64,000 bases of DNA from a virus. The stretch is taken from the IMG/VR virus record IMGVR_UViG_3300028840_002336, positions 6,145 to 70,144 of that record; one strand, written 5' to 3'. Below, piece after piece: positions 2,772 to 64,000 of the stretch (positions are counted from its first letter, which is position 1; every line of letters starts with the position of its first letter). The position numbers and the translations under genes are program-made. The notes under the pieces were generated by a model. That model ran no database searches and was not told the DNA's origin. It saw nothing but the letters and a program-made list of their open reading frames with translations.

Positions 2772-2808
2772 TTTCCAGGGTTATTGCATACCGCCAATAG
2801 TCTGGAAA
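2772..2808. promoter_or_regulatory. AT-rich intergenic segment bracketed by inverted copies of the TTTCCAG motif; possible promoter/operator
   Basis: TTTCCAG (2772-2778) and CTGGAAA (2802-2808) flank ggttattgcataccgccaatagt in the gap upstream of the 659-aa gene. Confidence 0.4.
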
Positions 2809-2811
2809 CTC

Positions 2812-3408
2812 TCAAGCGAAGGGCGTGTTGACCGGCCCAGGGTACACGATGAAGCCGCCCAGACTGGCCGAGAAGACCGGAGCCGCCAGCGTCGAAGTCG
2901 CCGCCAGCGCGATGGACCGGTCCCAGGGGATCTCCACAGGAGCCGGCGGAGCTGTCGCTGGCCCCAGCGCCAAGGTGGCCGCGCCCGCAGCGATGAACGC
3001 CCCGGGTAGCGCCGGCAGCGTCACCGGGGGTGTCGCAGAGACCGCCCCTGGAAACAGGGTCGCAGCTCCGGCCGAGACTGCGGCCCAGAACGCCGTGATG
3101 CCGGCCGTAAGCGCCGCCGGCGCCGTACCTGGCCCGGTGAGCCCGGCGTCCATGGCAGCGACCAGGGCCGTCTCGCAGCCGTCCAGAATCGGCCCAGGCA
3201 CCGGCGGGCTCGGACCCCCGCCCTCGGCGAACATGGCGGCGTAGGCGTAGCCCCAGGCTTGCCCGACAGTGTAGAGCGGCGCCGACGGCGGATCGCCCGG
3301 CCAACCCGCGCCAGCTCCAATCCCGGGCGGGAGGTCGGTCGGGTCATTAGTCGCCGGCACCATGAAGTCGGCCATCTTGGTCGCCATGGTGGCTGCGGAC
3401 ATCGCCAT
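2812..3408 (-). CDS. Hypothetical Pro/Gly/Ala-rich baseplate-region protein
   Basis: Fits tightly in the minus-strand operon between the spike and LysM genes. Confidence 0.6.
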   Translation of the reverse strand: MAMSAATMATKMADFMVPATNDPTDLPPGIGAGAGWPGDPPSAPLYTVGQAWGYAYAAMFAEGGGPSPPVPGPILDGCETALVAAMDAGLTGPGTAPAALTAGITAFWAAVSAGAATLFPGAVSATPPVTLPALPGAFIAAGAATLALGPATAPPAPVEIPWDRSIALAATSTLAAPVFSASLGGFIVYPGPVNTPFA

Positions 3409-3411
3409 GGC

Positions 3412-4464
3412 TCACCCGTCGGGGAAGATGACCTTGGTGCTCTTCACGTTGGTCGCCAGGTCAGGCGCCCCGATGATGGGCACCGGTGGACCCGTGGGGC
3501 CCATTGCCGAAGCGTGCGTGTGCGCGTCGAATGCTGTGAGCAGCGGCTTGATCGTACCGTTCCACCACGTCTCGAGGTGCTCGAAGACGGCCGCGTGCTT
3601 CGCGGTGCCGCCGCCGTCACCCACCGTCAACGTCGCGTCGCCGTCCCCGCCCTCGACCTTCATCGCCGCCTTGACCCCGTCGAGCAGCACCTCGTAGAGG
3701 TTCTCCCAGAGCCTGGCCGCAGCGAACGTCGCTGGTGAGGCCCCGCTCATGTCGTACAGCTCGTCGGAGATCTCTGCCGCTTGCTGCGCCCGCCGGTACT
3801 GCGAGCCCTTCCCGTCAGTCGGTGGGCCTGGCTCAGTGCCGTCGGGGTTGAGAGTGCCGTCGTTCGCGCGCGTGGTATCGACGACGTGGTCGCCGTTGTC
3901 AGCAATGCCGTAGTAGCTGCCGTGGTGGCGGAAGAAGTCGGGGTCACCGTCGGCGAGCTTGAGCCGCTTCCGGTGACCGATGTCATTGTCGCCGTTGCCC
4001 ACGTCGACGGACGGATGCGACACGCCCCCGAGAATGATCGGAAAGTTGAGGTTGTTATCGACGAAGCCGATCAACACGTGGTCGCCATCCCAGTTGGCCG
4101 GGTTGCTGCTCTTGTCGAAGTCAGGCGTGGAGCCCTCTGCAACGTCCACCGTCGTCGCGCGCGGCTTCCACACTCGCCCGCTGTGCATCCCGCCACGGTC
4201 TTGAAGCACCGGCACGGCAGGCAATTTGATGAAGCGCAGATTGGCGAGCGTGGAGTAGGCGAGCACGTCGCAGAACACGCCGAGCTGGGCACGGTCTTCC
4301 CGCCAGTTGGGCGCTCCATCCTCGTCGGTGGTGTAGGTAGCTGTCACCACCCCCCGGAGGTGCAGGCCCATCGCTGACGGCGCTGCGTCGCTTGGCGTCG
4401 TCGTAGGAATGCCCGCCTGCATCACCGACCGGCCAACGGGCCTCGTCGTGTACCTCATTGTCAT
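3412..4464 (-). CDS. Baseplate central spike (gpV/gp45-like)
   Basis: N-terminal OB-like region (GDHVLIGFVDNNLNFPIILG) and C-terminal apex motif FDAHTHASAMGPTGPP (HxH); follows the hub gene. Confidence 0.7.
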   Translation of the reverse strand: MTMRYTTRPVGRSVMQAGIPTTTPSDAAPSAMGLHLRGVVTATYTTDEDGAPNWREDRAQLGVFCDVLAYSTLANLRFIKLPAVPVLQDRGGMHSGRVWKPRATTVDVAEGSTPDFDKSSNPANWDGDHVLIGFVDNNLNFPIILGGVSHPSVDVGNGDNDIGHRKRLKLADGDPDFFRHHGSYYGIADNGDHVVDTTRANDGTLNPDGTEPGPPTDGKGSQYRRAQQAAEISDELYDMSGASPATFAAARLWENLYEVLLDGVKAAMKVEGGDGDATLTVGDGGGTAKHAAVFEHLETWWNGTIKPLLTAFDAHTHASAMGPTGPPVPIIGAPDLATNVKSTKVIFPDG

Positions 4465-4473
4465 GGCTTCTCC

Positions 4474-6003: not shown

Positions 6004-8420
6004 TGGCCACCCGACGCCGGCGTGTTAGGCACCTTGTAGCCTATCTTCGTGAAGAAGTCGGCCATCACTGCCGTCGTGCCCTCGAGGTGAGAGACGAACA
6101 TGGGGAAGGTGCGCGATGATTTCTCCATGAGCTTGGAGAAGGACGCGAGCGGTTTGTCGACGAGATCGGTGAACGCGCGGTTCGTATTGAGCGTGGTCTG
6201 CTCGAGTGTCTGCACCGTGCTAGCCAGACGGCTACCCAGGTCGAGCTGCTGGTTGAGGATACCCGCCTGGCGCTTCATGTTCGGCGCCAGGGTAGTCACG
6301 ATGGTCTTGACGTCGGAGACGAGCTTGTCCGGGGTGATCTTGGCCGCCTCTCCGCGTGCAGCCGGGTCCGCCTGGAGGCGCATCAGTTCCTGCCGCTCTT
6401 CGTCGGTCAAGGTGCCACGGTGCCGTTTGTACATGAGCCGCGCCTCTTTGCGCCCGACCGGCATCCCCGCACGACCCATCGCCCGGTGCAACACCGCCAT
6501 CCCCTGGTGCGGAGACCCCGCCCCCCTCGTCACCAGACGCACGAACTCGTTAAGCCGCGAGCTGCGCTGCTCACCGGTGAGCCCCTCGAGCCCCTCGAGG
6601 TTCTCCATGGCAGTCCACCACTCCCGCATCCCGCCGCCGCGGAAGCCGCCGAAAGCGCGCATCATGGCGATGTCGACACCCGACTGCGGCCCGCCCCCGG
6701 AGATGCGCTGGGCGGCCGTCACCGCGCCCCTGGCGACCATCACACCGCGCAGCACCCCGAGCCCCATCGACGAGGCTTCCTTGCCGATCTCAGCGATCGA
6801 CGTCGGATTGAGCGGCATACCAGTCTGGCGCCACTGCATGAAGCCCTGCGCCATGGTCTGCAAGTAGTCATTCACCTCGGAGCCCTTGAGCCCCAGGGCG
6901 GTGGCCTCGGCCAGCGTCTTGGCGAGGGCCTCGCCGCCGGCGCCGGGCGCGCCCACCTGCATTCCGACCATACCTCCGCGCCGCTGTGCGCCCAGGAAGG
7001 CGCCGATGGTCTGCTCCTGCACCCCGAAGCGTGTCCTGGCCGCCATGCCCACGTCGAGCAGCCCGGCTCCGCGCAGCTCGGAAAGCGTCCCGCCGCCGGC
7101 CTGGACGATGGAGCCGGCGACCTGTAACGCCTCTTGCTCGCTGACGCCCATGAGATCTTTGCCGTAGCGACGGATGTCCCCCAGGATCGCCCGCTGCCCG
7201 GCCTGACGCTGCTTGTTCCGCGCCCTGCGCGCGGCGTTGCGCTGCTCGGCCTTCCGGCGCTCGAAGTTGGCCGTCGTCTCGACGCCGGCCGCGAAGTCGG
7301 CGTCCAACTCAGCCTGGCGCTCTGCGAGCAGCTCTCGTCGAGCAGCCGTGCGCGGCTCGCCCGCGCGCGTCTGGTCGTACTTCATCTTCTGTTCGCGGGT
7401 GTGCCGCTCGTAGTGGTTCTCGCTCTTCCGACGGCGCTCGACGTCGCGTAGGTTCTGGCGCCGGTCTTCAAGGATCTGCGCCTCGCGCTTGTTGATCGCC
7501 TCGGTCGAGATGTCCCCCAAGCTCGCCTGGGGGCCGGTGCCTCGCGCGGCCGCACGCACGCGGTCGCTCGCGGCCTGGGTGTTTTCCAGCCTTTCCAGGC
7601 CCCCAGTACCCATGACGTCGTAGAGCTGCGGGGCCAGGCCCAGGCGCTGCCGTTGGAGCTGGATCGCGCCCTGGGCGAAGCCTGCGACGGTCTGGAGCTG
7701 CCCGGCGAGGGCCCCGCCTATCATCGGGATGCCGGCCAGTCCCTGGGCCACGCCACCGACACCCTGGAACAGCGACATGCCCACGCCGGTGGCTCCCGCA
7801 CGCCCGAGCTGCGCGCCGAAGCCGAATGGTGCACGAGCGCCGCGCCCGACAGCCACACCGGCCGCCTGGCGGACAGCCCCCGGGCCGCGCTGGAGAAAGG
7901 TCGCCCCGGGCACCGCGCCCTGGAGGAAGCCCTGGAGGAAGGCGCCGCGCGCGGCCTCCGCCTCCTGCTTCATCTGGCGGACGGCCTCCGCCTCCTTCTT
8001 GAAGGCGCGCTCTGCCGTCGACGCCTCGCGCGCCAGACGTCCGTGCTCCCGGTTCAAGTCCTTGAGGGTGCCCTCGAGCAGCTTGTAGTGCTTGGTCCCC
8101 TCGGGGACGCCTTCCATGGCTTTGACGACGCGGTACTGGTCCTGGGCGACATCCTGCATTTCCTTGCGCAGGCCGTCGAGAGCCTTTCCGAACTCCTTGA
8201 CGTCGTCGGTGTAGCGCTTCGAGAAGAAGACCGAGCCCGAGATCTTCTGCCCCAGGCGTACGAAGCCGGAGGCCTTCTTCTCGACCTCAGCGTAGCCACG
8301 GGCTTGCTGTTGCAGCACCGCGGTCGTGTCGCGACCCGCCTGGTTGATAGTTCGGGTGACCTCGGAGAAGCCCTTGACCGAACCCTGGACGATTAGATTG
8401 GTTGTGTAGTCACGCGGCAT
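6000..8420 (-). CDS. Tape measure protein
   Basis: ~800 aa, helical/coiled-coil and Gly/Ala-rich, after the tail chaperones. ATG 8420 is preceded by GAGG; 8432 is an alternative start. Confidence 0.75.
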   Translation of the reverse strand: MPRDYTTNLIVQGSVKGFSEVTRTINQAGRDTTAVLQQQARGYAEVEKKASGFVRLGQKISGSVFFSKRYTDDVKEFGKALDGLRKEMQDVAQDQYRVVKAMEGVPEGTKHYKLLEGTLKDLNREHGRLAREASTAERAFKKEAEAVRQMKQEAEAARGAFLQGFLQGAVPGATFLQRGPGAVRQAAGVAVGRGARAPFGFGAQLGRAGATGVGMSLFQGVGGVAQGLAGIPMIGGALAGQLQTVAGFAQGAIQLQRQRLGLAPQLYDVMGTGGLERLENTQAASDRVRAAARGTGPQASLGDISTEAINKREAQILEDRRQNLRDVERRRKSENHYERHTREQKMKYDQTRAGEPRTAARRELLAERQAELDADFAAGVETTANFERRKAEQRNAARRARNKQRQAGQRAILGDIRRYGKDLMGVSEQEALQVAGSIVQAGGGTLSELRGAGLLDVGMAARTRFGVQEQTIGAFLGAQRRGGMVGMQVGAPGAGGEALAKTLAEATALGLKGSEVNDYLQTMAQGFMQWRQTGMPLNPTSIAEIGKEASSMGLGVLRGVMVARGAVTAAQRISGGGPQSGVDIAMMRAFGGFRGGGMREWWTAMENLEGLEGLTGEQRSSRLNEFVRLVTRGAGSPHQGMAVLHRAMGRAGMPVGRKEARLMYKRHRGTLTDEERQELMRLQADPAARGEAAKITPDKLVSDVKTIVTTLAPNMKRQAGILNQQLDLGSRLASTVQTLEQTTLNTNRAFTDLVDKPLASFSKLMEKSSRTFPMFVSHLEGTTAVMADFFTKIGYKVPNTPASGGQ

Positions 8421-12188: not shown

Positions 12189-12569
12189 TTAGACGGTCGG
12201 CCGATTGCGGAAGGCCTCGAGAGCCTCGCGCCACTCGGGGATCGTCATCCGTCCCAGGTTGTTCTTGATGGCGTACCGAACGAAGCCGGCCAGCTGGTCG
12301 GGCTTGATGCCCGAGCTGATCGCCCAGACCCGAAGGTCGACACGCGGGAGCACGCGCTCGGGCGAAGGCGCCGGCGCGGGCGGTGGAGCTGACTTGGGCT
12401 CTGGAGGGGGAGGCAGAGTCTCGTCCGGCGGGGGCGGGAAGTCGTCGTCGCCAAAGCTGGCGCGGAAGCTCTTGCCGCCCTCCGGAGTTTCCAGCCTATC
12501 GTCGGCTGGTGTGGTCGACTCTCCGGCCTTCTTCTCGGCCGGCTTGCTGCGAGATCGCCTTGTCGCCAT
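12189..12569 (-). CDS. Hypothetical Pro-rich protein
   Basis: Fits the operon spacing between the tail-completion and sheath genes. Confidence 0.6.
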   Translation of the reverse strand: MATRRSRSKPAEKKAGESTTPADDRLETPEGGKSFRASFGDDDFPPPPDETLPPPPEPKSAPPPAPAPSPERVLPRVDLRVWAISSGIKPDQLAGFVRYAIKNNLGRMTIPEWREALEAFRNRPTV

Positions 12570-12572
12570 GCG

Positions 12573-13247
12573 CTACCCCTCGTCGTCACCCAGTGTGTAC
12601 GGGGTCACCAATGTCTGGACTCCGCCAACATCGCTCGGACTGCCGCTGCTGTCAATGTGAATGCCCGAGACCTTGAAGGCCTTGCCCAGGCGGCTGTCGT
12701 GGTCGATGCGGCAGAACTCGGAGCCCGCTTTCACCGTGATTTGACGAAGGAAAAGGTGCTCGGGCAAGTAGCGCGGGTCGGGCGCCAGGTCCCCGCCGGA
12801 ATAGGTCACCTGGGTGATTCCAGCCTCTTCGTGGTTGACGAAGTAGCGCCTGGCCAGGAGCAGCACATACTTCGCGTAGTCGTACATGTACGTCGTCACG
12901 TCGGGGTGCTCGCTGTAGCAGAGCACCTGATACGTGTGGCCCCAGATCGACTCGTAGACGTCTGCGCCCAGGTCTTCGCCCTCGTCGACCATGTCGGCGT
13001 CGTCGCCCAGCATCAGCTCGTCCTCGCTCTCGTCGGCGATGACGACGGCGAAGAGGGGGAAGTCGCTATCGCGGCGCGCGTAGCCGTGGATGACCTCTAC
13101 CGGCGTCGAGAACAGCTCCCTGATGGCCGTCACCTCCGCGGCGCCGTACAGGAGCTGCTCGGAGAACAGCTCGTCGAGAATGGCTGGATCGTCGACCGCA
13201 GCCTGCATTCCAGACTTTAGAGACGCGTAGATCAAACGCTGCAACAT
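12573..13247 (-). CDS. Putative tail terminator / tail completion protein
   Basis: Position upstream of the sheath; acidic beta-rich 224-aa protein (VIHGYARRDSDFPLFAVVIADESE). Confidence 0.55.
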   Translation of the reverse strand: MLQRLIYASLKSGMQAAVDDPAILDELFSEQLLYGAAEVTAIRELFSTPVEVIHGYARRDSDFPLFAVVIADESEDELMLGDDADMVDEGEDLGADVYESIWGHTYQVLCYSEHPDVTTYMYDYAKYVLLLARRYFVNHEEAGITQVTYSGGDLAPDPRYLPEHLFLRQITVKAGSEFCRIDHDSRLGKAFKVSGIHIDSSGSPSDVGGVQTLVTPYTLGDDEG

Positions 13248-13250
13248 CGG

Positions 13251-14099
13251 TCACTCCCTCTCGACGTAGCTCTGGAGAGCCATGCCGACCAACCGCTGCA
13301 TGTGTCCAGACACTTCCTTGGCCAGGTGCCGGCCGTCCGTCGGACGCCGTATCCATTTGTCGTCGACGGCCGTGGAGATAGTCCGGAAAGTCGTGTACTG
13401 CGAGCCGTAGGCCTTCTTGTACTGCTTCCCACCCCGCAGCATGTCGGCGTAGATATCGGTGGTGTGGGGCGCCACAGTGACCGCCCGGCCGGCGCGATCT
13501 TGGATGGTCTCGTGCCCAGCTCGGAGCAACGGGGCGAAACCGCTTTCCAGCCTTTCCCCGGGCTCACCGAGATCGAAGTCCCTGGGCACTAGCCTCTTCG
13601 CCCTGGCGTGCACTGCCTTGCCGATCTCCGCGGCCGCGTCGCTGCCGTAACGGCGCCCGTAGGCCTCTCCCATGCGTGTGGCGATGGTGCCAGCCGACCC
13701 GGGGGTCTGGTGCCGGAAGGGGATCGAGCGGTAGAGGTGCTGGCCGTCGGCGGTCCTGTGCTTGCCCGACTGGCCGCGCGGCACTTCGGGCACACCAGGC
13801 CCCAGGAGCGTGTCGTGCATCCGGGTGAGGTCCCGGCCGTTCTCGAGGACGTCGGCGAGCTGGCCGACGAGAGAGAGCGTGCCCACGCTGTTGCGCACCG
13901 ACGGCTTCTGTATGCTCGAGATGTAGTCGAGCGCGGTAGTGCGGAAGGACTGGCCGGCGAGCTGTATCCACTTCGCTCGAGCGCCCTCGAGCGCGTCGAG
14001 GATGATCCCGTCGAGAATGCGCTGTGCAGCGCCCACGCTGATGACGGAAAGCAGCTCGGGCGGCACCAGCTCTTCGAGCTTGGTGATGACGACGGTCAC
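13251..14099 (-). CDS. Putative neck/tail-completion protein
   Basis: GTG 14099 overlaps the upstream stop (GTGA). Motifs YRSIPFRH and QYTTFRTIS...W resemble SPO1/Twort-like neck-region proteins. Confidence 0.55.
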   Translation of the reverse strand: MTVVITKLEELVPPELLSVISVGAAQRILDGIILDALEGARAKWIQLAGQSFRTTALDYISSIQKPSVRNSVGTLSLVGQLADVLENGRDLTRMHDTLLGPGVPEVPRGQSGKHRTADGQHLYRSIPFRHQTPGSAGTIATRMGEAYGRRYGSDAAAEIGKAVHARAKRLVPRDFDLGEPGERLESGFAPLLRAGHETIQDRAGRAVTVAPHTTDIYADMLRGGKQYKKAYGSQYTTFRTISTAVDDKWIRRPTDGRHLAKEVSGHMQRLVGMALQSYVERE

Positions 14100-16988: not shown

Positions 16989-17831
16989 CTACCTCAAGTA
17001 TAGCCCTGCAAGCCTACCGTCGTCGAGTGAGGTCATGGCGCTCTGGTAGCCGACCATGTACAGCCTTTCGACCGTTTCCTCGTCGAGCCCAATGAAATTC
17101 AGCGAGTGCCACGGCACGTTGACCACGAGCGTCTGCGCCCAGGGGGCATCTTCCACGTGCTCGCGCTCGAGCCCCATACGCATCGTGCGCAGACACGCGA
17201 GCGCCAGCTCGAGGTCATTGTCCGGATAGTCTGGAAATTCCTGTACCTCGTCATCACGGCCGCGGAGCTGCACGCCCACGGCCGGGCCATCTAGCACGTC
17301 GACCGGGTAGTTGTTCAACAGGCCGCCGTCGGTGAGCGCGCGCCCCTCCCACGGCCGCAGCGCAAAGAGACCCGGCATCGACGAGCTGGTACACGCCGCC
17401 CAGGCCACGCTCACCGTTGGCGTGCGGCCTGGGTCGAAGATGATCAGCTCGTTGTGCGCGAGGTCCGTCGCCGTCACGTAGAGCGGGATCTTCGTGTTGC
17501 AGAACTGCTTGGGCACATGGCGCTCCAGGCAGCGCTCGATCCCGTCGAGGGTGAACTTGCCCAGGCGCTTGTGCTTGCGGCGCAGGAGCTTGTCCCAGAA
17601 CCCGGCCCAGTTGGGCCGGATGTGCTTCATCGGCAGCACGCGCTGGAGCAGCGGCAGACCTTCTCGCGGCTTCTGCCCTGACGACAGAAAGGCGCCGACC
17701 AGCGCGCCACCCGACGTCGCCACGATGGCCTCGGGGAGCTTGTCGCGGAAGACGGTCTCGTAGAGCGCCTGGCAGGCGCCCAAGTGAGCTGGGTAGAGCG
17801 CGGCCGAACCGCTGAGCACGAGGTTACACAC
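16989..17831 (-). CDS. Patatin-like phospholipase
   Basis: LVLSGSAALYPAHLG (oxyanion region variant), ATSGG nucleophile elbow, LYVTATDL, SSSMPGLF and DGGLLNNYP catalytic Asp motif. Confidence 0.85.
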   Translation of the reverse strand: MCNLVLSGSAALYPAHLGACQALYETVFRDKLPEAIVATSGGALVGAFLSSGQKPREGLPLLQRVLPMKHIRPNWAGFWDKLLRRKHKRLGKFTLDGIERCLERHVPKQFCNTKIPLYVTATDLAHNELIIFDPGRTPTVSVAWAACTSSSMPGLFALRPWEGRALTDGGLLNNYPVDVLDGPAVGVQLRGRDDEVQEFPDYPDNDLELALACLRTMRMGLEREHVEDAPWAQTLVVNVPWHSLNFIGLDEETVERLYMVGYQSAMTSLDDGRLAGLYLR

Positions 17832-24017: not shown

Positions 24018-24060
24018 CGGGCTCTCCTACCCCTGATTCCAGACTTTCGGTAGATGCCCC

Positions 24061-26521: not shown

Positions 26522-27361
26522 TCACAGCTTGCCCTGGCGCTTGAGCGCCCTGGCCGCGGCGACGAAACGTCGCGCGCTTTCCAGACTTGCGTTGGGGAGC
26601 CTGTCCTGCACCCAGCTGATCGCCTCAGCGTCAGTCAGGCTCTTCTTCGCGCGCTTCTTCGCGCACCCCTCGCACTCGCAGCCCTCCGGGTGCACGTCGC
26701 GCTCCAGACTCTCGGTCGCGAGCACCTGGCCGCTGGTCGCCGGTGGACCGCCCGGGTTGGCCGGGCCCATGGCGAGAGCCTTGTCCAGACTCTCGACCTC
26801 AAGCTCGCCAGACTCGACGGACTCCAGACTCTTGCTCAGCAGCTCGAGCTTGGTGTCCGGGTTGACCGGGCAGTGCGTGATCGCGATGTTGCGCACCATG
26901 GCCTTCGCGATGGTCTTCTTCTTCGGGCCGGTGCGCTGGAGGATCTTGCCCTCGACGGAGAAGCCCAGGCGCCTGGGGGTGCCCTGCAACGCCTTGCCCA
27001 TCTCCCAGACCTTCTTCGCATCGGTGGTCTCGAGAAGGTAGCCCTCCGCCCAGTGGCCGTCGCGGGTCGCGGTCGTGCCGTCGGGGAGCGTCTGCCCCTT
27101 GCGGAAGTAGTCGACATTCTCGGGGTAGCCGAGCACATCGGTGAGCTTCTTCCCGTGATTATTGTTGAACCAGCCCGCGGACACCGCCTCGGAGAAATCC
27201 AGAGACCTCTGGAGGATGGTCTCCTTCTGCTTGTCCTGCCTGTCGGTCGAGACGATGCCGCCGATGCGCCAGCGCTTCCCCTTCGGCGCTCCAGCCTTCT
27301 CGAAGAAGCTGACTGGCACCTCGAATTGGAACGTGTCTCGGCTCACCGTGTCTCCAAACAA
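26522..27361 (-). CDS. Prohead protease
   Basis: IGGIVST...DKQKE, GWFNNNH, WAEGYL, LGFSVEG (catalytic Ser) and NIAITHCPVNP. Confidence 0.88.
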   Translation of the reverse strand: MFGDTVSRDTFQFEVPVSFFEKAGAPKGKRWRIGGIVSTDRQDKQKETILQRSLDFSEAVSAGWFNNNHGKKLTDVLGYPENVDYFRKGQTLPDGTTATRDGHWAEGYLLETTDAKKVWEMGKALQGTPRRLGFSVEGKILQRTGPKKKTIAKAMVRNIAITHCPVNPDTKLELLSKSLESVESGELEVESLDKALAMGPANPGGPPATSGQVLATESLERDVHPEGCECEGCAKKRAKKSLTDAEAISWVQDRLPNASLESARRFVAAARALKRQGKL

Positions 27362-51507: not shown

Positions 51508-52056
51508 GTCAGTCTCCCTTGCTGTTGTGTTGCCAAAGTCTGGAAAGCCAGGGCGCTGCCCTCACGGCCGCCCCCGGGTCCCCGGACGGATGGTCATCGC
51601 GGATGGGACCCGCTCGGCGCACACAGCGCACCGGGGAGCCCCCTGGCGGCACCCTGGGGCAGGTCCGTGCGTCAGTCCCCGCCTCCAGCGCCGCTTGGAG
51701 CCCCGCCCAGGCCCCGGACGCGTCATGCGGAGGAACCAGCTCTGCCTGCGCCCAGGGGCCGGACGGGACAGGGTTGTGGGCCCAGGGTGCCCCTTCTATG
51801 GGACCCGCTGGCGCACGGAGAATCACCGGGAGGGCCCCGGGGGGAGCCCACTGCGGACCAGTCCGGCTGGGGGTGGTGAACCCAGGGTCACGGTGGCGAG
51901 GTGGTCCCCACGCCGACCCGGCCAGATGGGACCCATCCCCGGGCTCGTCACCGGGCTCCCCTCCCCCCTCCCGGGGTCGCTCGAGCGGGCCCAGCACGAT
52001 GGCCCACGCATCGCTCTCGCTCAGCTGCGATGCGTGTCTGCTTGTGTTCTCCGTCG
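51508..52056. other. Non-coding, very GC-rich region with short direct repeats
   Basis: No convincing ORF; ATGGGACCCGCT(C)GGCGCAC at ~51603 and ~51798, ATGGGACCC at ~51926; many G/C runs. Confidence 0.55.
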
Positions 52057-53118
52057 TCACTCTTCGTCGTCCTCTGTCTTGCGCCGCTTGCGCTTCCCCT
52101 TCGGTGGTGTGCGTAGGCGTCCGCGCGCGTAGCACGCGCTCCCCTTCTCTAGCAGGGAAGCCGCTTCCTTGGCGACTCGATCTGCCCCCCATTGGTCTGC
52201 TAGGTCTCTGAGGTCGCTTGCCGCTGGTGAGCTGGGGAGGCGAGCTAGCAGCGCCTTGCGCAGCTCCGTCGTCGAGGTCCGTTTCCTGCCTTTCGGTGGG
52301 CGAGCGCGTAGAACCCCGGACGGGCCCTGTGCACGGCGTAGCTCGTCGGGACTGAGCACCCTTGCCCTCGAGAACCCGTCGACAGCCGGCCGTCCGCGCT
52401 CCGTTTCCAGACTTTGCCGACGCCACCGCAGGGCGCGCGCGACCAGCGCGCGCCGCAGCTCGGCACCCCCCAACGGCGTCATTGTCGGGTCGCCGCCGGA
52501 GACGCTGTTGCCGCCGTCGGTTCCAGCCTCTGCGCCACGCTTTCCAGCCTTTACTCTACGCGCTCGATTTCCAGACATTCCGCCCGGAGACATCGCCGCG
52601 GTGATGTCGAGTATCGCCGCACGCGCCTCCGCGTCGCTGAGCCTCTGTCCCTTCCACTGCTCGAGCTTTGCTCTCCACTGCTCGCGGTCTCTGCTGTTGA
52701 ACCCTAACCCTCTCAGCACATCGTTGACTGTCCCTAGGTGGCGCTTGCTCTCGACGTCACGTGCTTCGTTCTCTGCGGTGTTCGGCTTGGGCTTGCGGTT
52801 GGTCATCTTGTCGAGGTTGCGCTGTGCCCTTCGCAGTGCTGTTCGCTCTGCTTGCATGTCCGGTATCTGTCCTGGGGTTCTGTAGCTCCACGCTCCTTGT
52901 GGGATGACGAGGGCTTTGACCAGCGGGTCGAGTCCGCTGTCGCGTTGTTCCAGACACTCACTCGGTGTGAGCGCTTCGTTTCCAGACTTATTGACGGTCA
53001 TCCGCTTGTAGATTCCGACGACGTAGGGCCAGTCGTTCTCGTGCCCCTCTTCGGCTGCTCGCTTCTTCGCTTTCGTCCAGTAGCGTTCGAGTCCTGGCTT
53101 GACGATGTTCGCCGGCAT
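52057..53118 (-). CDS. Basic protein with K-(A/S/G) sites; likely first gene of the head-cargo operon
   Basis: MPANIVKPGLERYWTKAKKRAAEEGHENDWPYVVGIYKRM; VNKS, LVKA, LRKA and LEKG sites; atypical codon usage. Confidence 0.6.
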   Translation of the reverse strand: MPANIVKPGLERYWTKAKKRAAEEGHENDWPYVVGIYKRMTVNKSGNEALTPSECLEQRDSGLDPLVKALVIPQGAWSYRTPGQIPDMQAERTALRRAQRNLDKMTNRKPKPNTAENEARDVESKRHLGTVNDVLRGLGFNSRDREQWRAKLEQWKGQRLSDAEARAAILDITAAMSPGGMSGNRARRVKAGKRGAEAGTDGGNSVSGGDPTMTPLGGAELRRALVARALRWRRQSLETERGRPAVDGFSRARVLSPDELRRAQGPSGVLRARPPKGRKRTSTTELRKALLARLPSSPAASDLRDLADQWGADRVAKEAASLLEKGSACYARGRLRTPPKGKRKRRKTEDDEE

Positions 53119-53218: not shown

Positions 53219-53512
53219 TCAGTCTTCGTTTTCCCGACTTTCGCTGTCGTCGAAGGGCCCGAGCGCTTCCTCTTCGAGCTGGCGCAGCTCTGCCATCACG
53301 CTGTCGACGGTCGGCAATCGTCCGGCCGCTGCGAGATCCTCGTCGAGCAACTCCCGCGGTTGGTCGTACGCTTCCCCCGGAGGAAGTCGACCACGCGCCT
53401 CCCCTGGGTAGAACTGCGCGCCGCTGTCCGCCATCATTTCGTTGAGCCAGGCGAGACGCTCCCGTTGCTCGCGCCGCTTGCGGTACTTCTCCAGGTCGAT
53501 GACCTCACCCAT
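53219..53512 (-). CDS. Hypothetical protein
   Basis: MGEVIDLEKYRKRR start, a common phage N-terminal motif. Confidence 0.55.
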   Translation of the reverse strand: MGEVIDLEKYRKRREQRERLAWLNEMMADSGAQFYPGEARGRLPPGEAYDQPRELLDEDLAAAGRLPTVDSVMAELRQLEEEALGPFDDSESRENED

Positions 53513-53876
53513 CGGTCGGCTCACTTTCCAGCCTTTCCACCGGTCGCATCGGCGGAGCGCTCCGCGGTCCTTCTCCCTGAGCGTAGCACGTCGAACACCA
53601 GTAGCGACCGCCCCGCTCGCGCTCGATCTCGTGTCCTGCTTCGCAGCGGTACGTGATCAGCTCCGGCTCGGGCTTCGGGTCGTAGTCGCCGAGGGCTTCG
53701 CTCAGGATGGCGTCGACGAGAGCCCACTTGCCGTCGCGCTGGGCGTCTCTCGCCTCTCGTATCACTCGCATCAGCTTGCACCCGAGGTGCCCGCCGTCGA
53801 CGAACTCGAGCTGCTTGGGCTCAACGCAGCACTCCGGCACGTCTACCGCTTCCACTCCGTCGAGGTCAACCGGCAT
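53505..53876 (-). CDS. Hypothetical Cys/His-rich protein
   Basis: AAGGGAG RBS; CEAGH...CSTC. Confidence 0.55.
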   Translation of the reverse strand: MPVDLDGVEAVDVPECCVEPKQLEFVDGGHLGCKLMRVIREARDAQRDGKWALVDAILSEALGDYDPKPEPELITYRCEAGHEIERERGGRYWCSTCYAQGEGPRSAPPMRPVERLESEPTDG

Positions 53877-54374: not shown

Positions 54375-54387
54375 CGTTTCCAGCCTT

Positions 54388-54717
54388 TCACTTGAATGGT
54401 GTGAACTCGTGACGATGCGTCTTGCTGCCGTCCGCTTGCATCGCCACGTGGATCGTCCACACCACCTTGGGTGGTTCTTTGCCCTCGTCGACCTCCGGCA
54501 ACCCAGGCCCCTCGAGAATGACCCAGCTGTCGCCGTCACCGCCGTTGACCAACGTCACCGACACGAGCTTGATGTCGCCCAAGTCCCACGCATCCGCCAA
54601 CCTGTCGAGCAACTTGCCCGCGCTCACCAGTCCGCGCAGGTCTGCCTTCGACGCCTCGAGCGTCTGCATGAGTAGCTCCGTCGACACCATCGCCATACCT
54701 GTTTGTCTCGTCGTCAT
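54388..54717 (-). CDS. Hypothetical protein
   Basis: Tightly packed minus-strand ORF. Confidence 0.5.
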   Translation of the reverse strand: MTTRQTGMAMVSTELLMQTLEASKADLRGLVSAGKLLDRLADAWDLGDIKLVSVTLVNGGDGDSWVILEGPGLPEVDEGKEPPKVVWTIHVAMQADGSKTHRHEFTPFK

Positions 54718-55151: not shown

Positions 55152-55739
55152 CTAGTGTCGCGTCTCGCCGTCCCCAGCTCGGGCTGCGCGGCAGCTTTCG
55201 CAGTTGCACTCGTCGCCGGCAGGGATGACGTCACCGCCTATCATCTGGGAGAGCAGATCGCCGAGGTTACCAGGCGCACGCTGTCGCCGCTGCACTGCAC
55301 CGATCGCCCGGCCGTTGTCGCCGAACCGGGCCGCCCGCAGTAGGGCCACCGTCGTGCGGTCGCCGAGCGCGCCGCCGGAGCTGTCGCTGCGCTGGTCCTG
55401 CACGTATGCCGCGACCTTCACGTGGCTGCCGACGAAGAGCGCGAGCCCGATGATCCGGTTGAGCGCGGCAAACACGCTTTCCAGACTATTCACGTCGACC
55501 TCGAGTATCACCTCCCCGGTGAGCGGGTCGGGGTTGCGATCGAGCGCGTCCGCCGGCCAAGCACAACGGTCGCCGTTGACGAACTGCACCTGCACATCGC
55601 CGTCGCTGTCCGGGCCCATGACGATCACCACCGGCTTGCCCACCAAGCCCCTGCCCTCGTCGGTGAGCCGCTCGTCGTCGAGCAGCACCGCCTGCATCCC
55701 GATCATGTCGCTGATCGCCCCGTCGTTCGTCCTCGCCAT
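55152..55739 (-). CDS. Hypothetical protein
   Basis: GAGGA RBS; 195 aa. Confidence 0.55.
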   Translation of the reverse strand: MARTNDGAISDMIGMQAVLLDDERLTDEGRGLVGKPVVIVMGPDSDGDVQVQFVNGDRCAWPADALDRNPDPLTGEVILEVDVNSLESVFAALNRIIGLALFVGSHVKVAAYVQDQRSDSSGGALGDRTTVALLRAARFGDNGRAIGAVQRRQRAPGNLGDLLSQMIGGDVIPAGDECNCESCRAARAGDGETRH

Positions 55740-55772: not shown

Positions 55773-55931
55773 TTACTCGTCGAGCACGTCGCGCATTCGA
55801 CGCTCTCGCTCTCGCCACTCTCTGATCGCGTAGTAGATCCCCCACGCGCCACCGACGACAATCACGACCGCCAACAGCATGAAGCCGATGACGTGACTCC
55901 ACACGATGACGTCGAGCACGGTGTCTCTCAT
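55773..55931 (-). CDS. Small membrane protein
   Basis: Hydrophobic VIGFMLLAVVIVVGGAWGIYYAI. Confidence 0.5.
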   Translation of the reverse strand: MRDTVLDVIVWSHVIGFMLLAVVIVVGGAWGIYYAIREWRERERRMRDVLDE

Positions 55932-56308: not shown

Positions 56309-56907
56309 CACCCCTCCGGCATCAGAGCGCACACCCAGCACAGCATGTCGTCGAGGCTGCCGCTGTTGATACGCTCCTTGTTCGGGCCTGGGCCGAACTC
56401 GATGCGCTTGGCGTTCCATCCCCCGCGCTTCGATTTCCAGACTTTCCCGACGACGGCGCCGGTCTTCTCGCGGTGGTACTTCACGCCGTATGACAACGTG
56501 CCGTCGTCGCCTTCACCCAGGGAGATCGTCCCCATCTCTGCTTCGGGCGCCTCTTCGCAGAACTTCAGCGTCGGGCCCATGTACACTTCGTGAATGCTCA
56601 CCCGCATCGTGCGCAGCATGTTCTCCGCGGTCTTCGGCATACCCTCTTCGAGGAAGATCAGCGCGCCGTGGATGATCTGCCTGCGCTCGAGCGCGAGTAG
56701 CTCGAATGATCGCACGCGCTCGACCGCTTCGCGCTTGGCCTGGGCGAGCTGGTTGCGAAGGCACAACACGTCGCCGGGGTTGTGCGTGTAGCACGGCCCG
56801 AGGAAGTAGCCGACGACGGTCACGACCTCGCCACAGTCGGGACACTTGCGCTGGTCCGGGCGCAGCGACTTCTCTTCTTCGTCGAACTTCTGCACTGTCT
56901 CAGTCAT
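56308..56907 (-). CDS. Hypothetical protein with Zn-finger-like N-terminus
   Basis: CPDC...C..H....C. Confidence 0.55.
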   Translation of the reverse strand: MTETVQKFDEEEKSLRPDQRKCPDCGEVVTVVGYFLGPCYTHNPGDVLCLRNQLAQAKREAVERVRSFELLALERRQIIHGALIFLEEGMPKTAENMLRTMRVSIHEVYMGPTLKFCEEAPEAEMGTISLGEGDDGTLSYGVKYHREKTGAVVGKVWKSKRGGWNAKRIEFGPGPNKERINSGSLDDMLCWVCALMPEG

Positions 56908-57904: not shown

Positions 57905-58156
57905 TCAGCACCGCTCGTCGTCATAGAACGCCGGCGCGCTCTCCGGCATCTCTTCGTTGGTCTCGACCACCCTGGGCGTGTCAGCGTAGGCGTCCCAGTC
58001 CGGCGCGCGGCGGATGTGCAAGTCTGGAAAGTAGTCCCAGTCGTATGGCGTCTTGCGCCAGGCCAAAGCCTTCGCAGCTCCGACCGTCGCCTCGAAGACG
58101 AGCAGCGACCCGTCGCTAGGGTCTGGTCCGCACCAGACGTGCCACGCCTTGAGCAT
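57905..58156 (-). CDS. Hypothetical protein
   Basis: MLKAW.V.......LLVF..T...AK..A, a common phage small-protein pattern. Confidence 0.55.
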   Translation of the reverse strand: MLKAWHVWCGPDPSDGSLLVFEATVGAAKALAWRKTPYDWDYFPDLHIRRAPDWDAYADTPRVVETNEEMPESAPAFYDDERC

Positions 58157-58849: not shown

Positions 58850-60714
58850 TACCAGAACCTTCCCATCTGCGATGGCGACGGCGCGCCTTCCTTGAGCGTA
58901 CCCGTATCCTCGTCGACGAGGTTGAACTTCGGTGCACTGGCGTCGGGCACCTTCTCTTCCGTCTTCACTGTGCCAGCGGCCACCGCCTCGAGCACGCGCT
59001 TCTGGTCGGCCGCCACTTCGGCCATGTACTTCTCCAGCTCTTCCTTGGTGAGCGCGCTCTCCTTCAACTCCCCCTTGGCGATCTTGTGGTCGACGTAGTC
59101 ATCCTCTTCGTCACCGAATGAGAACGAGAACGCGCCCTGGCTGATGGCGTTCTCGCACATCCAATTCGCCATCACGGTATCGTCGTGCGTAGCCACGGAC
59201 ACCACCTTGCCCTCGTCGAAGGTGAAGGCGCGCAGCTCGGCGACCCACACGTCGGTCAGCTCGACGCTGCGCGTGTCCCCGCGCGGGATGCGGTACTTCT
59301 TGTTCTCGAATTTCACACGCAGCGACGGGACGCCCTTCTCGAGACTGTGCTTCTCTTCGCCAGTCTCGTAGAGCTTCACCGGTAGGTCGGTCGTGCGTAT
59401 CAGCTCGGTGCCGAACACTCGCTGCGCCTGGTTCGCTTCGATGAAGATCAAGTCCGCCTTGTAGCGCCTGGCGATGCTGTTGATGTGGCTCAGCTGCACG
59501 TGGTAGTCGAGCCCCTTGTCTCGGAAGATGTCCAGTATCCACCGGTTCTCGAAGACGTCGATACCCATCGTCCAGATCACGGTGTAGTCAGCGCCGGCCG
59601 ACGACGACAGCGCGATGTCAACGCCCATGAAGACGCTGCGGATGCCTGCCTTGCGCCAGAACTCGATCGGCATACCCAGCTTGACCAGCGGCTGCTCGAT
59701 CGGTGAGCCCTGGAATAGCGTCGAGGGGAACAGCGACATCTCGTCGCTGACCGGCACGCATTGGAACTCGCGCGCGAAGCGCACGGTGCCGATCTCTCGA
59801 CGCCTCTGCTCGAGCCGCTCGCGGTTGTAGCGCTCCGGCCAGAGCACGCGCCCGGTGTCCTCGTCGAGGGCCTGATAGCGGACGAACTTATACTCGACGT
59901 TCGTGCGGAGCTGGGCGTAGAGGTCCGCCTCGTGGAACGGCGTACCGACGACGATGATCTGACCACCCGGCACGATCATGTTCGTGATGGCGGTGTAGAA
60001 GTAGTCCACGTGCTTCTTGCGCACGGTCTCGCTGTAGGCGTCCTCGTCATTGAGGCCGTCGTCGACGACGATCCACGTTGGGTGAGCGCCGCGGACCTTG
60101 GTGCCGAACCCGCGTGCGTAGATGCGGTGGCCGTTGCTGAGCTTGATTGCCGTCGACGACCACATCGTCTTGTTCTTGGGCACGAGGTGCTGGAGCTTCG
60201 GGTTGCGCTCCAGCTCGTCCTTGATGTCCTGCAAGATGCGCTCGGCCTGGGGAGCTGTCGCCGAGAAGATGAAGCCGATCCCGTTGGGCTCCTTCGACGC
60301 GCGCCAGATCGGATAGGCCAGGTCGAAGAAGAAGGTCTTGGAGTGGTCGCGAGGCGCCATGATGCAGATACGATGGTGCTCGCGCACCAACGCGTCCCAC
60401 TCTTCGTGATGGCGACCGATCAGGAACCTGCCGTTGTACGGTGGGTCAGGCGGCCCGCTGAGCACCTCGCTGGCGAAGAAGGCGCAGCTGTAGTCGAGCA
60501 GCTGCTGTAGATGCTCCCCGAGCTTTCCAGCCTTTTGCACCTCGACCGCAAGCGCACCCGCGCCGTCGGTGACGCCGGCGTTCTCCATTGCGGTCTCTAG
60601 CGCGCTCGGCTTCGGTGAGAAGCGGCCGTGCTCGTCACGCTTGGCCGGGGTCCTCTTCACCGGCCGTCGGCGGCGCGGCTTTTCCTGACTTTCCATCCTT
60701 CGAGTCTGCCTCAC
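58849..60714 (-). CDS. terL: Terminase large subunit
   Basis: Walker A APRDHSKT, RGAHP..IVVDD Walker B, VVGTP motif, nuclease FMGVDIA, ADYT and HDDTVMA. The start may be ATG 60696. Confidence 0.92.
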   Translation of the reverse strand: MRQTRRMESQEKPRRRRPVKRTPAKRDEHGRFSPKPSALETAMENAGVTDGAGALAVEVQKAGKLGEHLQQLLDYSCAFFASEVLSGPPDPPYNGRFLIGRHHEEWDALVREHHRICIMAPRDHSKTFFFDLAYPIWRASKEPNGIGFIFSATAPQAERILQDIKDELERNPKLQHLVPKNKTMWSSTAIKLSNGHRIYARGFGTKVRGAHPTWIVVDDGLNDEDAYSETVRKKHVDYFYTAITNMIVPGGQIIVVGTPFHEADLYAQLRTNVEYKFVRYQALDEDTGRVLWPERYNRERLEQRRREIGTVRFAREFQCVPVSDEMSLFPSTLFQGSPIEQPLVKLGMPIEFWRKAGIRSVFMGVDIALSSSAGADYTVIWTMGIDVFENRWILDIFRDKGLDYHVQLSHINSIARRYKADLIFIEANQAQRVFGTELIRTTDLPVKLYETGEEKHSLEKGVPSLRVKFENKKYRIPRGDTRSVELTDVWVAELRAFTFDEGKVVSVATHDDTVMANWMCENAISQGAFSFSFGDEEDDYVDHKIAKGELKESALTKEELEKYMAEVAADQKRVLEAVAAGTVKTEEKVPDASAPKFNLVDEDTGTLKEGAPSPSQMGRFW

Positions 60715-61045
60715 TTTCCAGACTTTGTCGAACCTTGGTCTCTGCCTCCGCTTGCGTCAGGCGCCAGCGCAGCACGTGCACTTGTTCGTCGAGCGCCTTG
60801 AGCATCGTCGTCATCGACTCCACCTGCGTCTTGCAGCTCTCCACCTGCGACTCGAGCGCAATCGCTTGAGCGCGCAACGCGTGGACCTCGTCCTCGTAGC
60901 GCCAGTCTCTGTGTTGCATCAGTCCCTGCTGTGAAGAAGAGACCGGCAGCTCTAGCTCATTGCAGTCGGGGGGGAGGACCGCGCCGAGCGTCGAGCTGCC
61001 GGTCATGGCTTGGGCAGCCACACCCATCATACCGACGTCACCCAT
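60635..61045 (-). CDS. Coiled-coil hypothetical protein
   Basis: GGAG RBS; heptad-rich; overlaps the terminase 5' end. Confidence 0.5.
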   Translation of the reverse strand: MGDVGMMGVAAQAMTGSSTLGAVLPPDCNELELPVSSSQQGLMQHRDWRYEDEVHALRAQAIALESQVESCKTQVESMTTMLKALDEQVHVLRWRLTQAEAETKVRQSLESEADSKDGKSGKAAPPTAGEEDPGQA

Positions 61046-62356: not shown

Positions 62357-62406
62357 GAAGCGCCTACCCTACCAGTCCGTCGTCACGCGCTCAACTTTCC
62401 TGACTT

Positions 62407-62607
62407 TCACTTGCGCTTGCTCCCGCTGCCGCCCTTGTTGTCCAGACAGTGGCAGCCGTACGACCACGTCGGTGCGTCCGGGTGCTGGGCACGCCAGCAC
62501 GCGTAGTCGCACGAGCCCCATCCCACGATCAGCAGTACGAGCAGCAGCAGCCATCCGAGCGCTTTCCAGGCTTCCCGCCCCTTCTCGTCGCCGTCGGTCT
62601 TCTTCAT
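62407..62607 (-). CDS. Small membrane protein
   Basis: TM ALGWLLLLVLLIVGWG; GGAGG RBS. Confidence 0.5.
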   Translation of the reverse strand: MKKTDGDEKGREAWKALGWLLLLVLLIVGWGSCDYACWRAQHPDAPTWSYGCHCLDNKGGSGSKRK

Positions 62608-62649
62608 GGCGCCTCCCCTACTAGGTAAAACACATCAGCGCCGCGATCG

Positions 62650-62934
62650 TTACGGTGGCGCGCCGGTCCTCGTCGGAATCGGCCCATGCAATTCCAGACT
62701 ATTCACTGCGGCATGTCGGCGAGCTGCGCCCGCCAGGGATCGCTCATACTCTCGGTTGGCGATGGCGAGCCGCTCGCACACCCGCTGCTGCACCAGAGCT
62801 GTCTGCCGCTGCTCAGCTACCTGACGACGCAGGCGCTCCAGCTCGCGCCCCTGGGCACCGTTTTGCAACCACAGCCAGGTCACCGCCGCACTGGCGACGA
62901 AGGCTAGGACAGCCACGGTAGCCCAGCGCAGCAT
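62650..62934 (-). CDS. N-terminal TM plus coiled-coil protein
   Basis: WATVAVLAFVASAAVTWLWL followed by heptads. Confidence 0.5.
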   Translation of the reverse strand: MLRWATVAVLAFVASAAVTWLWLQNGAQGRELERLRRQVAEQRQTALVQQRVCERLAIANREYERSLAGAARRHAAVNSLELHGPIPTRTGAPP

Positions 62935-62935
62935 G

Positions 62936-63241
62936 TCAGCGCACTCGGCTTTCCATCCACGCCTTGTAGTCTTCCAAGAGCTGGATCAGGTCGGTGGCGT
63001 CGGAAGACCGGAACCATTTGGTGGTACGGTCGTTCCGCGTCTTCCGGCCGACGGAGAACGACGTGCGGTAGCCGCGACCGTCAGACAGAGCCGCCTGACG
63101 GACCTCGAGATGAAGGTCGCCGTTTTCCAGAGTATCGACAGTCTGCCAATCCAGCGGCGGGAGCGGCGGCCGGTCGCCTCGACCGTTGCCGCCCATGCCT
63201 CTGCCGCTGCCCCTGCGCTCTTGCGCTCCATTCCCACGCAC
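62936..63241 (-). CDS. Hypothetical protein
   Basis: GGAGG-TCAC-GTG start at 63241. Confidence 0.55.
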   Translation of the reverse strand: MRGNGAQERRGSGRGMGGNGRGDRPPLPPLDWQTVDTLENGDLHLEVRQAALSDGRGYRTSFSVGRKTRNDRTTKWFRSSDATDLIQLLEDYKAWMESRVR

Positions 63242-63249
63242 GTGACCTC

Positions 63250-64000
63250 CTAGCGCCACCAGGCGCCCTCTGTGTTGCCCTCTGCGGCTGCCTGAGCAGC
63301 TGCCGCGCCCGCTGCTTCCCAGACGCGCGCGGAGGCCGCCTCGAAGGCTTCCTCGCACGCGTCGATGCCGATGAAATCGAGTCCGTGCTTCACTGCCGCC
63401 ACCCCGAACGCGCCGCTCCCCATGAAGGGGTCACAGAGTATATCGCCGGCGCCGGCACTTTGACGAATGAGGATCTCCGCCAGCTCGACAGGCTTCTCGG
63501 TCGGGTAGCCCCGCCAGACCCTGGGCACCTCGAGCACGTCGTCGATCTCGTCGAGCGCCGCGGGCCCCTTGAGCACGTCGGGCACGCCCAGGTCGGCGAG
63601 CTTGCGCTTGCCCTTCTCGGCGAAGAGGATGAACTCGTAGCGCGCGCGGTAGTGGTAGCCCATGCCGATCTTCATCTTGTCCCAGACCAGCCGTTTCCAG
63701 ACTTTGAAACCGGCGGCCGCCAGCTCGGGCTTGAGCACGTCGCTGGTCTCGTCGTCGCACATCACGTAGCAGTGCGAGCCCGGCCGGAGCACGCGGTACA
63801 GCTCCGCGCAGAAGTCTGGAAAGCGGCTGTTGGGGAAGATGTTGAACCAGTCATTCGAGCTGGCCTTGCTGTGGCTCAACCGGGTCGTGGTTCCACGGGC
63901 GCGGTGCTTTTCCAGGCTTTCGTAGGCCGGGTCGGTCACCACGATGTCGATCGAGCTGGGCGCCATCGCGCGCAGTGCGTGCACGGCATCGCAATGCAGT
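63250..64000 (-). CDS. DNA amino-methyltransferase (N6-A/N4-C, beta class); 5' end probably outside the window
   Basis: IDIVVTDPAY (DPPY-type motif IV), YRVLRPG, WDK..GMGY.YR..YE, YPTEKP and DPFMGSG (motif I). Confidence 0.88.
   Translation of the reverse strand, partial: LHCDAVHALRAMAPSSIDIVVTDPAYESLEKHRARGTTTRLSHSKASSNDWFNIFPNSRFPDFCAELYRVLRPGSHCYVMCDDETSDVLKPELAAAGFKVWKRLVWDKMKIGMGYHYRARYEFILFAEKGKRKLADLGVPDVLKGPAALDEIDDVLEVPRVWRGYPTEKPVELAEILIRQSAGAGDILCDPFMGSGAFGVAAVKHGLDFIGIDACEEAFEAASARVWEAAGAAAAQAAAEGNTEGAWWR

Follow-up and report, generated by a model that had tools for sequence, protein, structure and literature searches.

Short sequence words that are dispersed along a genome are known from bacteria as well as from their phages. 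The DNA uptake sequences of Neisseriaceae and Pasteurellaceae are 9 to 12 bp long, occur about once per kb in both orientations and in any reading frame, and fall into lineage "dialects". In T5, phiKMV-like and tf-like phages, short nick motifs recur along the genome, mostly on one strand, at a few to about 14 sites. The known dispersed-word systems of phages, namely the Chi-rich phages and the stoperators, have each revealed one factor that reads the whole genome. In cluster A mycobacteriophages, repressors of the L5 (gp71) type have more than 20 sites, each a 13-mer; these stoperators sit in promoters and short intergenic gaps and function in one orientation only (PMC9283540). Chi-rich phages rely on host RecBCD without a recombination module of their own; Chi recurs every 1.86 to 1.9 kb in LLS and P1, clusters near one genome end, and shows top-strand ratios of 20:3 (LLS) and 32:0 (MD8) on maps with the terminase at the left (Zheng et al. 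2025, PMC12315714). Here, we describe the 12-mer TTTCCAGVCTTT, an AT-rich, asymmetric word dispersed through a stretch of 64,000 nucleotides ("the window") which comprises bases 6145-70144 of the 70,144-bp single virus record IMGVR_UViG_3300028840_002336.

Exact copies of the word number 18 in the window, 17 on the plus strand and one on the minus strand (51535), and an earlier note on this DNA, made from the letters alone, had given the same count at the same coordinates. In 100 dinucleotide-preserving shuffles, no match was obtained in any; allowing up to two mismatches raises the count to 63, compared with a shuffle mean of 4.74 (standard deviation 2.24, largest value 12). The excess persists when the encoded proteins are held constant: over 300 synonymous-codon shuffles of 64 minus-strand genes, 13 exact plus-strand copies in coding DNA compare with 0.027 expected, and at up to one mismatch the numbers are 25 against 1.32 on the plus strand and 4 against 0.20 on the minus strand. 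The eight-base core, TTTCCAGV, is the top-ranked over-represented word of the 70-kb record, with 45 copies. The 18 exact and 20 one-mismatch copies are as follows; the gene calls are our own, made from open reading frames (ORFs) and codon-position G+C.

7583..7594, plus strand: exact copy (TTTCCAGCCTTT), inside gene 6000-8432 (minus strand)
13544..13555, plus strand: exact copy, within 13248-14095, where no gene is called
27923..27934, plus strand: exact copy, inside gene 27688-29424 (minus strand)
31369..31380, plus strand: exact copy, inside the gene for a 1991-aa SNF2-domain protein, 29424-35399 (minus strand)
35110..35121, plus strand: exact copy, inside the same 1991-aa gene, 29424-35399 (minus strand)
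35282..35293, plus strand: exact copy, G variant, inside the same 1991-aa gene, 29424-35399 (minus strand)
42039..42050, plus strand: exact copy, inside a 1575-aa gene, 40541-45268 (minus strand)
50876..50887, plus strand: exact copy, near the 5' end of a 1909-aa gene, 45265-50994 (minus strand)
51535..51546, minus strand: the sole exact copy in reverse, located between genes, 27 nt ahead of the ATG start codon of gene 51007-51507 (minus strand)
52404..52415, plus strand: exact copy, inside ORF 52057-53118 (minus strand)
52541..52552, plus strand: exact copy, inside ORF 52057-53118 (minus strand), with a one-mismatch copy 27 nt off at 52568
53525..53536, plus strand: exact copy, where genes 53505-53876 and 53219-53524 meet
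54377..54388, plus strand: exact copy, in overlap with the stop codon that ends gene 54388-54717
56434..56445, plus strand: exact copy, 14 nt ahead of the ATG start codon of gene 55928-56419
60524..60535, plus strand: exact copy, inside the large terminase gene, 58849-60714 (minus strand)
60715..60726, plus strand: exact copy, immediately upstream of the earliest start that is possible for the large terminase gene
63694..63705, plus strand: exact copy, inside the N6_N4 methyltransferase gene, 63250-63984 (minus strand), where it reads K-V-W-K
63909..63920, plus strand: exact copy, G variant, inside the methyltransferase gene, 63250-63984 (minus strand)
2797..2808, minus strand: one-mismatch copy (TTTCCAGACTAT), intergenic
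12488..12499, plus strand: one-mismatch copy
13207..13218, plus strand: one-mismatch copy, in the K-S-G frame
17226..17237, minus strand: one-mismatch copy, inside gene 16989-17831
24036..24047, plus strand: one-mismatch copy between genes, 18 nt ahead of a gene that starts at 24017
26578..26589, plus strand: one-mismatch copy, in the S-L-E frame
27639..27650, plus strand: one-mismatch copy, intergenic
30406..30417, plus strand: one-mismatch copy
31777..31788, plus strand: one-mismatch copy
40559..40570, plus strand: one-mismatch copy
52282..52293, plus strand: one-mismatch copy, in ORF 52057-53118
52568..52579, plus strand: one-mismatch copy, in ORF 52057-53118
52979..52990, plus strand: one-mismatch copy, in ORF 52057-53118
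53230..53241, plus strand: one-mismatch copy
55478..55489, plus strand: one-mismatch copy
58019..58030, minus strand: one-mismatch copy
60681..60692, plus strand: one-mismatch copy
62396..62407, plus strand: one-mismatch copy
62563..62574, plus strand: one-mismatch copy
63811..63822, minus strand: one-mismatch copy, inside the methyltransferase gene

Most of the exact copies (13 to 15 of 18) are intragenic, and all three reading frames are used, including the K-S-G, S-L-E and K-V-W-K readings listed by the earlier note. The codons that the word imposes are rare ones, as had been stated: Lys is encoded by AAA in 5.9% of cases, Gly by GGA in 7.7%, Ala by GCT in 10.6% and Glu by GAA in 18%. Intergenic copies lie at 24036, 40500 and 51535. 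The near-matches that had been named were recovered at one or two mismatches, except for 27443, which fits in its first eight bases (the core) only, and with 2799 corrected to 2797. The noted rise in density at about 50.5-53.5 kb is borne out by 11 copies at up to two mismatches between 50876 and 53536. The excess over codon shuffles, the use of three frames and the intergenic copies together mean that the enrichment is genuine and operates at the level of DNA; selection acts on DNA, not on proteins, where the earlier note had named DNA or RNA. Outside the 12 bases no sequence conservation was found, and scans for tRNAs and Rfam families gave no match; the word is therefore neither a mobile element nor a structured RNA. 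Copy 50876 lies within the loop of a G+C-rich inverted repeat at 50861-50901 (GGGGGTCCCCCGG ... CCGGGGAGGCCCCC) and is the sole exact copy with such arms.

The same kind of word is found in related phages, in other spellings. Neither DNA nor protein searches of the phage collection returned a match, the best capsid identity in the viral, genome and metagenome collections was 65%, and a terminase scan of metagenome contigs gave no match. The exact 12-mer is absent from 64 of 66 capsid-related viral loci; two have one copy each. The relative G001 (109,277 bp, rated 100% complete, genes almost all on one strand) carries the word TTCCAGAA 63 times on the plus and 72 times on the minus strand, while the 14 other words of the form TTCNNGAA have at most four copies each. 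Its genes hold 49 and 59 copies in the two orientations against 9.3 and 5.4 in codon shuffles. The 9-mer TTCCAGAAA occurs 55+57 times in G001 and 51+54 times in a further relative, G002, with control words at three copies or fewer. In G003 (109,201 bp, 64% G+C), the word is TCCAGCAA, with 26 copies on the plus and 24 on the minus strand against about 1.3 to 1.8 expected for each. A TCCAG core (on the other strand, KCTGGA(A)) is common to this phage, G001 and G003, and the tails differ; in this phage, the extended core is TTTCCAGVCT, which reads AGBCTGGAAA on the gene-sense strand.

Words were scored in 67 non-redundant rows, consisting of this phage and 66 loci of at least 9 kb with a near-full capsid gene; loci below 9 kb, duplicates and partial capsid genes were left out. 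TCCAG-type words exceed the threshold in 14 of the 23 rows with a major capsid protein identity of at least 50%, which span G+C contents of 0.48 to 0.66, and in none of the 44 more distant loci, six of which have other words (TTCCGA-type, CGACAATT, AATCCTAA). On a capsid tree of 31 of the 67 rows (every row at 43% capsid identity or more, with five more distant rows added), every TCCAG word falls within one 23-row clade (support 98/96). Within the clade of G001, sites are retained in position: between the loci L002 and L007, which share about 72% DNA identity, 9 of the 18 aligned sites of the word in L002 are found unchanged in L007, compared with 9.4% of all aligned 8-mers, and other pairs keep 9 of 17 (background 11.2%) and 7 of 12 (background 19.1%). 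Retention above background implies that the sites, though subject to turnover, are under purifying selection. No site positions coincide between this phage and G001 (10 orthologous gene pairs) or G003 (eight pairs).

Several more distant capsid relatives (L025, L115, L027/L047, L048/L136, L061/L062/L152) have over-represented 8-mers of their own in both orientations: CGACAATT (18+10), CTGACAAT (10+8), TTCCGAAG (14+10), TTCCGATA (2+6) and AATCCTAA (14+1 in L152). Dispersed words may, thus, be a wider trait of this phage group. A different element is seen in G003 (L076-L081), where TCGCTCTCCT(C), which is complementary to (G)AGGAGAGCGA, has 19 to 22 copies on one strand and a single copy on the other; many genes seem to share it as an extended and highly uniform ribosome-binding site.

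The earlier note had taken the word of this phage to be intrinsically strand-oriented, a claim that was not supported. In the window, all ORFs with a recognisable family lie on the minus strand, and the codon-position G+C pattern agrees; as the genes all share a strand and the word contains six T but a single A, coding constraint alone favours one orientation. The expectation was derived protein by protein, from the amino-acid sequence and the codon usage of the genome, with observed sites masked or unmasked. In genes, the core TTTCCAGV was counted 30 times on the plus and 6 times on the minus strand, against masked expectations of 2.87 and 0.84 (unmasked, 3.72 and 0.97). This amounts to an enrichment of about 10-fold and 7-fold, respectively, and the observed ratio of 5:1 is near the expected 3.4:1. 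The whole contig has 36 cores on the plus and 9 on the minus strand, and a second-order Markov tally in 10-kb bins gave 35 and 9, with an expectation of about 1.0 on either strand. Outside the gene calls, copies with at most one mismatch number three on the plus strand (13544, 24036, 27639) and two on the minus strand (2797, 51535). Positions at which the 10-mer can be written synonymously are used in 22 of 39 cases in one orientation and in 4 of 9 in the other. The core ratio is 7:6 left of 20 kb and 29:3 right of it (Fisher p = 0.011, for a cut picked post hoc), and the expectation from local composition moves likewise, from about 0.55:1 to about 2.2:1. Most of the strand bias follows from one-strand coding, and the 17:1 ratio is poor evidence for polarity. 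As a general caution for the method, a one-strand genome can be expected to show a strong strand bias of any T/A-asymmetric word from coding alone.

These counts bear directly on the comparison with stoperators, which the earlier note had suggested, and according to which a phage repressor would bind the asymmetric word and block initiation and elongation of transcripts genome-wide. The set of 18 exact and 20 one-mismatch copies of a 12-bp asymmetric site does resemble an L5-type set; as in cluster A, an asymmetric site of 12 to 13 bp is present in tens of copies, with spellings that differ between lineages (PMC9283540). In addition, 17 of the 18 exact copies share one orientation relative to transcription. 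There are also differences: the word here is mostly intragenic, both orientations are enriched, the relatives have up to 135 copies, with ratios of 63:72 and 26:24 despite near one-way genes, and genes for lysogeny were not found in the relatives. A tyrosine integrase (PF00589) was found in none of four records, no repressor was found among 30 G001 proteins scanned, and the replisome of G001 is, by its predicted proteins, of a lytic type. A load of 135 sites per 109 kb would also be far above that of any known repressor. Taken together, a stoperator function is very improbable. Promoters of a phage RNA polymerase or sigma factor were considered and rejected, given that most copies are intragenic and that the words of the relatives occur in both orientations in genomes whose genes run nearly one way.

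The main rival to a phage-borne reader is a Chi-like host signal, and Chi enrichment is the closest published signature. The word, in its sense reading KCTGGAAA, would then be the crossover hotspot of the host, turning RecBCD or AddAB from the degradation of phage DNA to recombination. The core is the most enriched 8-mer of this phage, is found mostly on the gene-sense strand and reaches its highest density towards the terminase. The sense reading GCTGGAAA, which is found in 10 of the 18 exact copies, shares GCTGG with the Chi sequence of E. coli, GCTGGTGG, and six of eight bases with the candidate GCTGGAGG of Buton and Bobay 2021 (PMC8022716). Likeness to the Chi-rich phages LLS, MD8 and P1 includes a top-ranking octamer at about one per 1.6 to 1.9 kb in coding DNA, mostly on the sense strand of late genes, clustered towards one end and starting GCTGG or TCTGG in the sense reading (PMC12315714). 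The word here differs from Chi in being AT-rich and 10 to 12 bases long, and the relatives encode RecA-like proteins and show no strand bias. A RecA-like gene is present in all three near-complete relatives, and G001 also has SbcC-like, RuvC-like and SSB-like proteins; the strand bias in this phage is largely coding constraint and is missing from the words of the relatives.

The distribution of the words among phages and bacterial genomes weighs against Chi as well. Similar words occur in phages of G+C 0.48 to 0.66, which fits a phage-borne reader better than a host-specific one. A host of 66% G+C would pay a price for maintaining, every few kb, an AT-rich word made of rare codons. Among 401 genomes of the Verrucomicrobiota phylum, the 12-mer reaches at most 43 copies per genome (4.4 to 5.4 Mb), and 70 genomes have none, compared with 18 copies in 70 kb here. 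No strong enrichment was seen in this set, which was picked only since one relative sits in a Lentisphaeria metagenome-assembled genome (MAG). Nor is TTCCAGAA enriched in the two MAGs that contain capsid relatives. On balance, we regard a host Chi as unlikely, yet as an explanation to be kept in view.

A second group of explanations ties the word to DNA replication, either as strong start sites for a DnaG-type primase (template CTG, primer beginning AG) or as site-specific nicks of the kind known from T5, phiKMV-like and tf-like phages. The machinery of G001 includes DnaB-like and DnaG-like proteins, an 846-aa helicase, a clamp-like protein and a family-A-type polymerase with an HNH insert, and CTG is present on the complementary strand of every TCCAG-type spelling. 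The per-strand spacing of about 1.5 to 1.7 kb in G001 lies within the sizes of Okazaki fragments. However, the spacing is Poisson-like and uneven, with a coefficient of variation per strand of 0.85 to 1.16 in the relatives and 1.43 here, the latter because of the gradient in copy number along the genome. The known primases, to our knowledge, need only about three bases, so that selection for 8 to 12 would go unexplained. With the nick motifs, the word shares that it is short, specific and recurs along a phage genome, mostly on one strand here; it differs in its dozens of sites and in lying on both strands in the relatives. Sites in G001 come as near as 8 bases to each other, and opposite-strand pairs as near as 22 bases, where nicks could break the DNA. 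Orientations in G001 do not alternate (59 switches against 67.2 expected), and close pairs are barely above chance (20 against 15.7). Priming or nicking is distinctly unlikely.

The gene content and the extent of the record matter for what follows. The window has a G+C content of 63 to 68%, and CheckV rates the record as 65% complete. Capsid relatives (54 to 65% identity) derive from contigs of 97 to 110 kb, so that about 38 kb are absent from the record, and the full genome is that of a tailed phage of roughly 108 kb. Synteny with G001 suggests that the absent part would be a non-structural module. The stretch is present in three of the five listed sequencing runs, from sediment and seawater metagenomes, in contigs identical to the window where the two were aligned; no RNA run was among those listed. 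The recognised genes of the window include the following.

24115-25539, minus strand: major head protein, SU10 type
29424-35399, minus strand: 1991-aa protein with SNF2 and Helicase_C domains, a giant head-region gene
35804-37528, minus strand: portal
45265-50994, minus strand: 1909-aa protein with ART-PolyVal and PAPS_reduct domains, a giant head-region gene
58849-60714, minus strand: large terminase
63250-63984, minus strand: N6_N4 DNA methyltransferase
Baseplate and tail proteins, minus strand: recognised by family match

Between gene 51007-51507 and ORF 52057-53118 lies a very G+C-rich stretch of about 540 bp (51520-52056) without a convincing gene, which has long-range inverted repeats as well as several direct ones (for example ATGGGACCCGCT, present twice at a distance of 195 bp); the sole exact reverse copy of the word is at its edge. 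The neighbouring ORF 52057-53118 (minus strand) encodes 353 aa and includes five word copies at up to one mismatch. Its N-terminus (MPANIVKPG...DWPYVVGIYKRM) is well conserved and common to seven database homologues and one ORF of G001; one of the homologues is in a Myxococcales MAG, on a contig of 3.5 Mb, and a protein identical to the ORF product is recorded on a contig of 107,997 bp. The C-terminal half is basic and Gly/Arg-rich here and does not have the GGTYYRRV...RYRYYYD block that is conserved in the family. ORF 51509-52426, in another frame, was considered as the absent C-terminal half and rejected. As a candidate for the reader of the word, ORF 52057-53118 was also rejected; it belongs to no Pfam or PHROG family, and its own family is conserved without a sign of DNA binding.

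The N6_N4 methyltransferase is the sole recognised DNA-modifying enzyme within the window, and the word could be the target of a phage DNA modification by this enzyme or by a PAPS-reductase-like enzyme carried as head cargo. In favour of such a role are the two genes themselves, the PAPS_reduct domain being part of one giant head gene, and asymmetric sites of 5 to 8 bp are typical of such modification enzymes. Being a target would, however, leave a 10- to 500-fold enrichment unexplained. A tblastn search found no match to the methyltransferase in G001 or G003, both of which nevertheless bear words; the enzyme therefore cannot be the shared reader. Modification as the whole explanation is, in our judgement, quite improbable.

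Still less is to be said for the word having no function and arising as a by-product of context-specific mutation or repair bias, which we find barely credible. Short-patch repair inflates CCAG-type words in E. coli, and the pentamer TCCAG/CTGGA is about 2.6 to 2.7-fold over-represented in G001 and G003 relative to a first-order expectation. Such repair bias, however, has effects of about 2-fold on words of four to five bases, and does not produce the effect of over 400-fold on a 12-mer with T-rich flanks. Moreover, the sites of relatives are kept five times above background, and single-change neighbours of the G001 word show no depletion.

The enrichment, the selection at the level of DNA, the enrichment in both orientations, the lineage-specific spellings and the positional conservation in relatives are shown by this analysis. 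From the earlier note, the proposal of a recognition site for some factor is judged the most plausible. We tentatively favour, although we would not call it probable, the reading that the word provides putative orientation-neutral recognition sites for a DNA-binding or DNA-processing factor of the phage lineage. The word would be a dispersed site that is maintained by selection on the DNA itself and constitutes one spelling of a TCCAG-core family in a clade of uncultured lytic tailed phages of about 108 kb. Its reader would be a sequence-specific factor tied to this lineage and most likely phage-encoded. Since the AT-rich 12-mer is nearly absent from bacterial DNA, such a reader would meet its site every 2 to 4 kb in the phage genome and hardly ever in that of the host. 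The word could, thus, be a self-tag that steers replication, recombination, packaging or protective modification to phage DNA. As a near-unique tag of phage DNA, it would also explain the contrast in base composition. Among the described systems, the DNA uptake sequences come close in word length, the use of both orientations, random placement, intragenic positions in any frame and dialects; they differ in being signals of bacterial chromosomes that are read by the competence machinery, while the word here is in a phage of lytic type.

Several observations weigh against the recognition-site reading. No reader protein was found, and the methyltransferase of the window is excluded as a shared one; about 35% of the phage genome lies outside the record. 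The exact 12-mer in genes is distributed 15:0, against a masked codon-aware expectation of 0.0035:0.0042, and some true polarity of the 12-mer may exist; the synonymous model cannot price changes of amino acids. Plus-strand copies at up to one mismatch number 18 in 50-64 kb, at the terminase end, and four in 0-24 kb, at the tail end, an end-to-end gradient that a plain self-tag does not predict. Within the clade, the words are patchy, with sister pairs on the capsid tree of which one member has the word and the other does not. Eight changes are needed, a number equalled by 34 of 500 label shuffles. Such patchiness would also fit host switching, and it may stem in part from the threshold applied to short loci.

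The signal described here ranks among the strongest features of this genome; it overrides codon bias, and its spellings vary across a clade that has large enzyme-bearing head genes. In the literature, no description of this word family was found, and a search for TTCCAGAA with "phage" gave only unrelated matches among those listed. A bolder form of the favoured reading, which we put forward with greater reserve as a possibility, is that a lytic clade with genomes of about 108 kb writes a lineage-specific TCCAG-core signature on both strands every 1 to 2 kb, with rare codons as the price, by which a phage-encoded reader would distinguish phage from host DNA. If true, this would represent a self-tagging principle for lytic phages, so far undescribed. 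Should the reader be host-encoded, the word would reveal what an uncultured bacterium of the sediment uses as its Chi-like sequence; should it be phage-encoded, the word would be a compact self-recognition code with evolving specificity.

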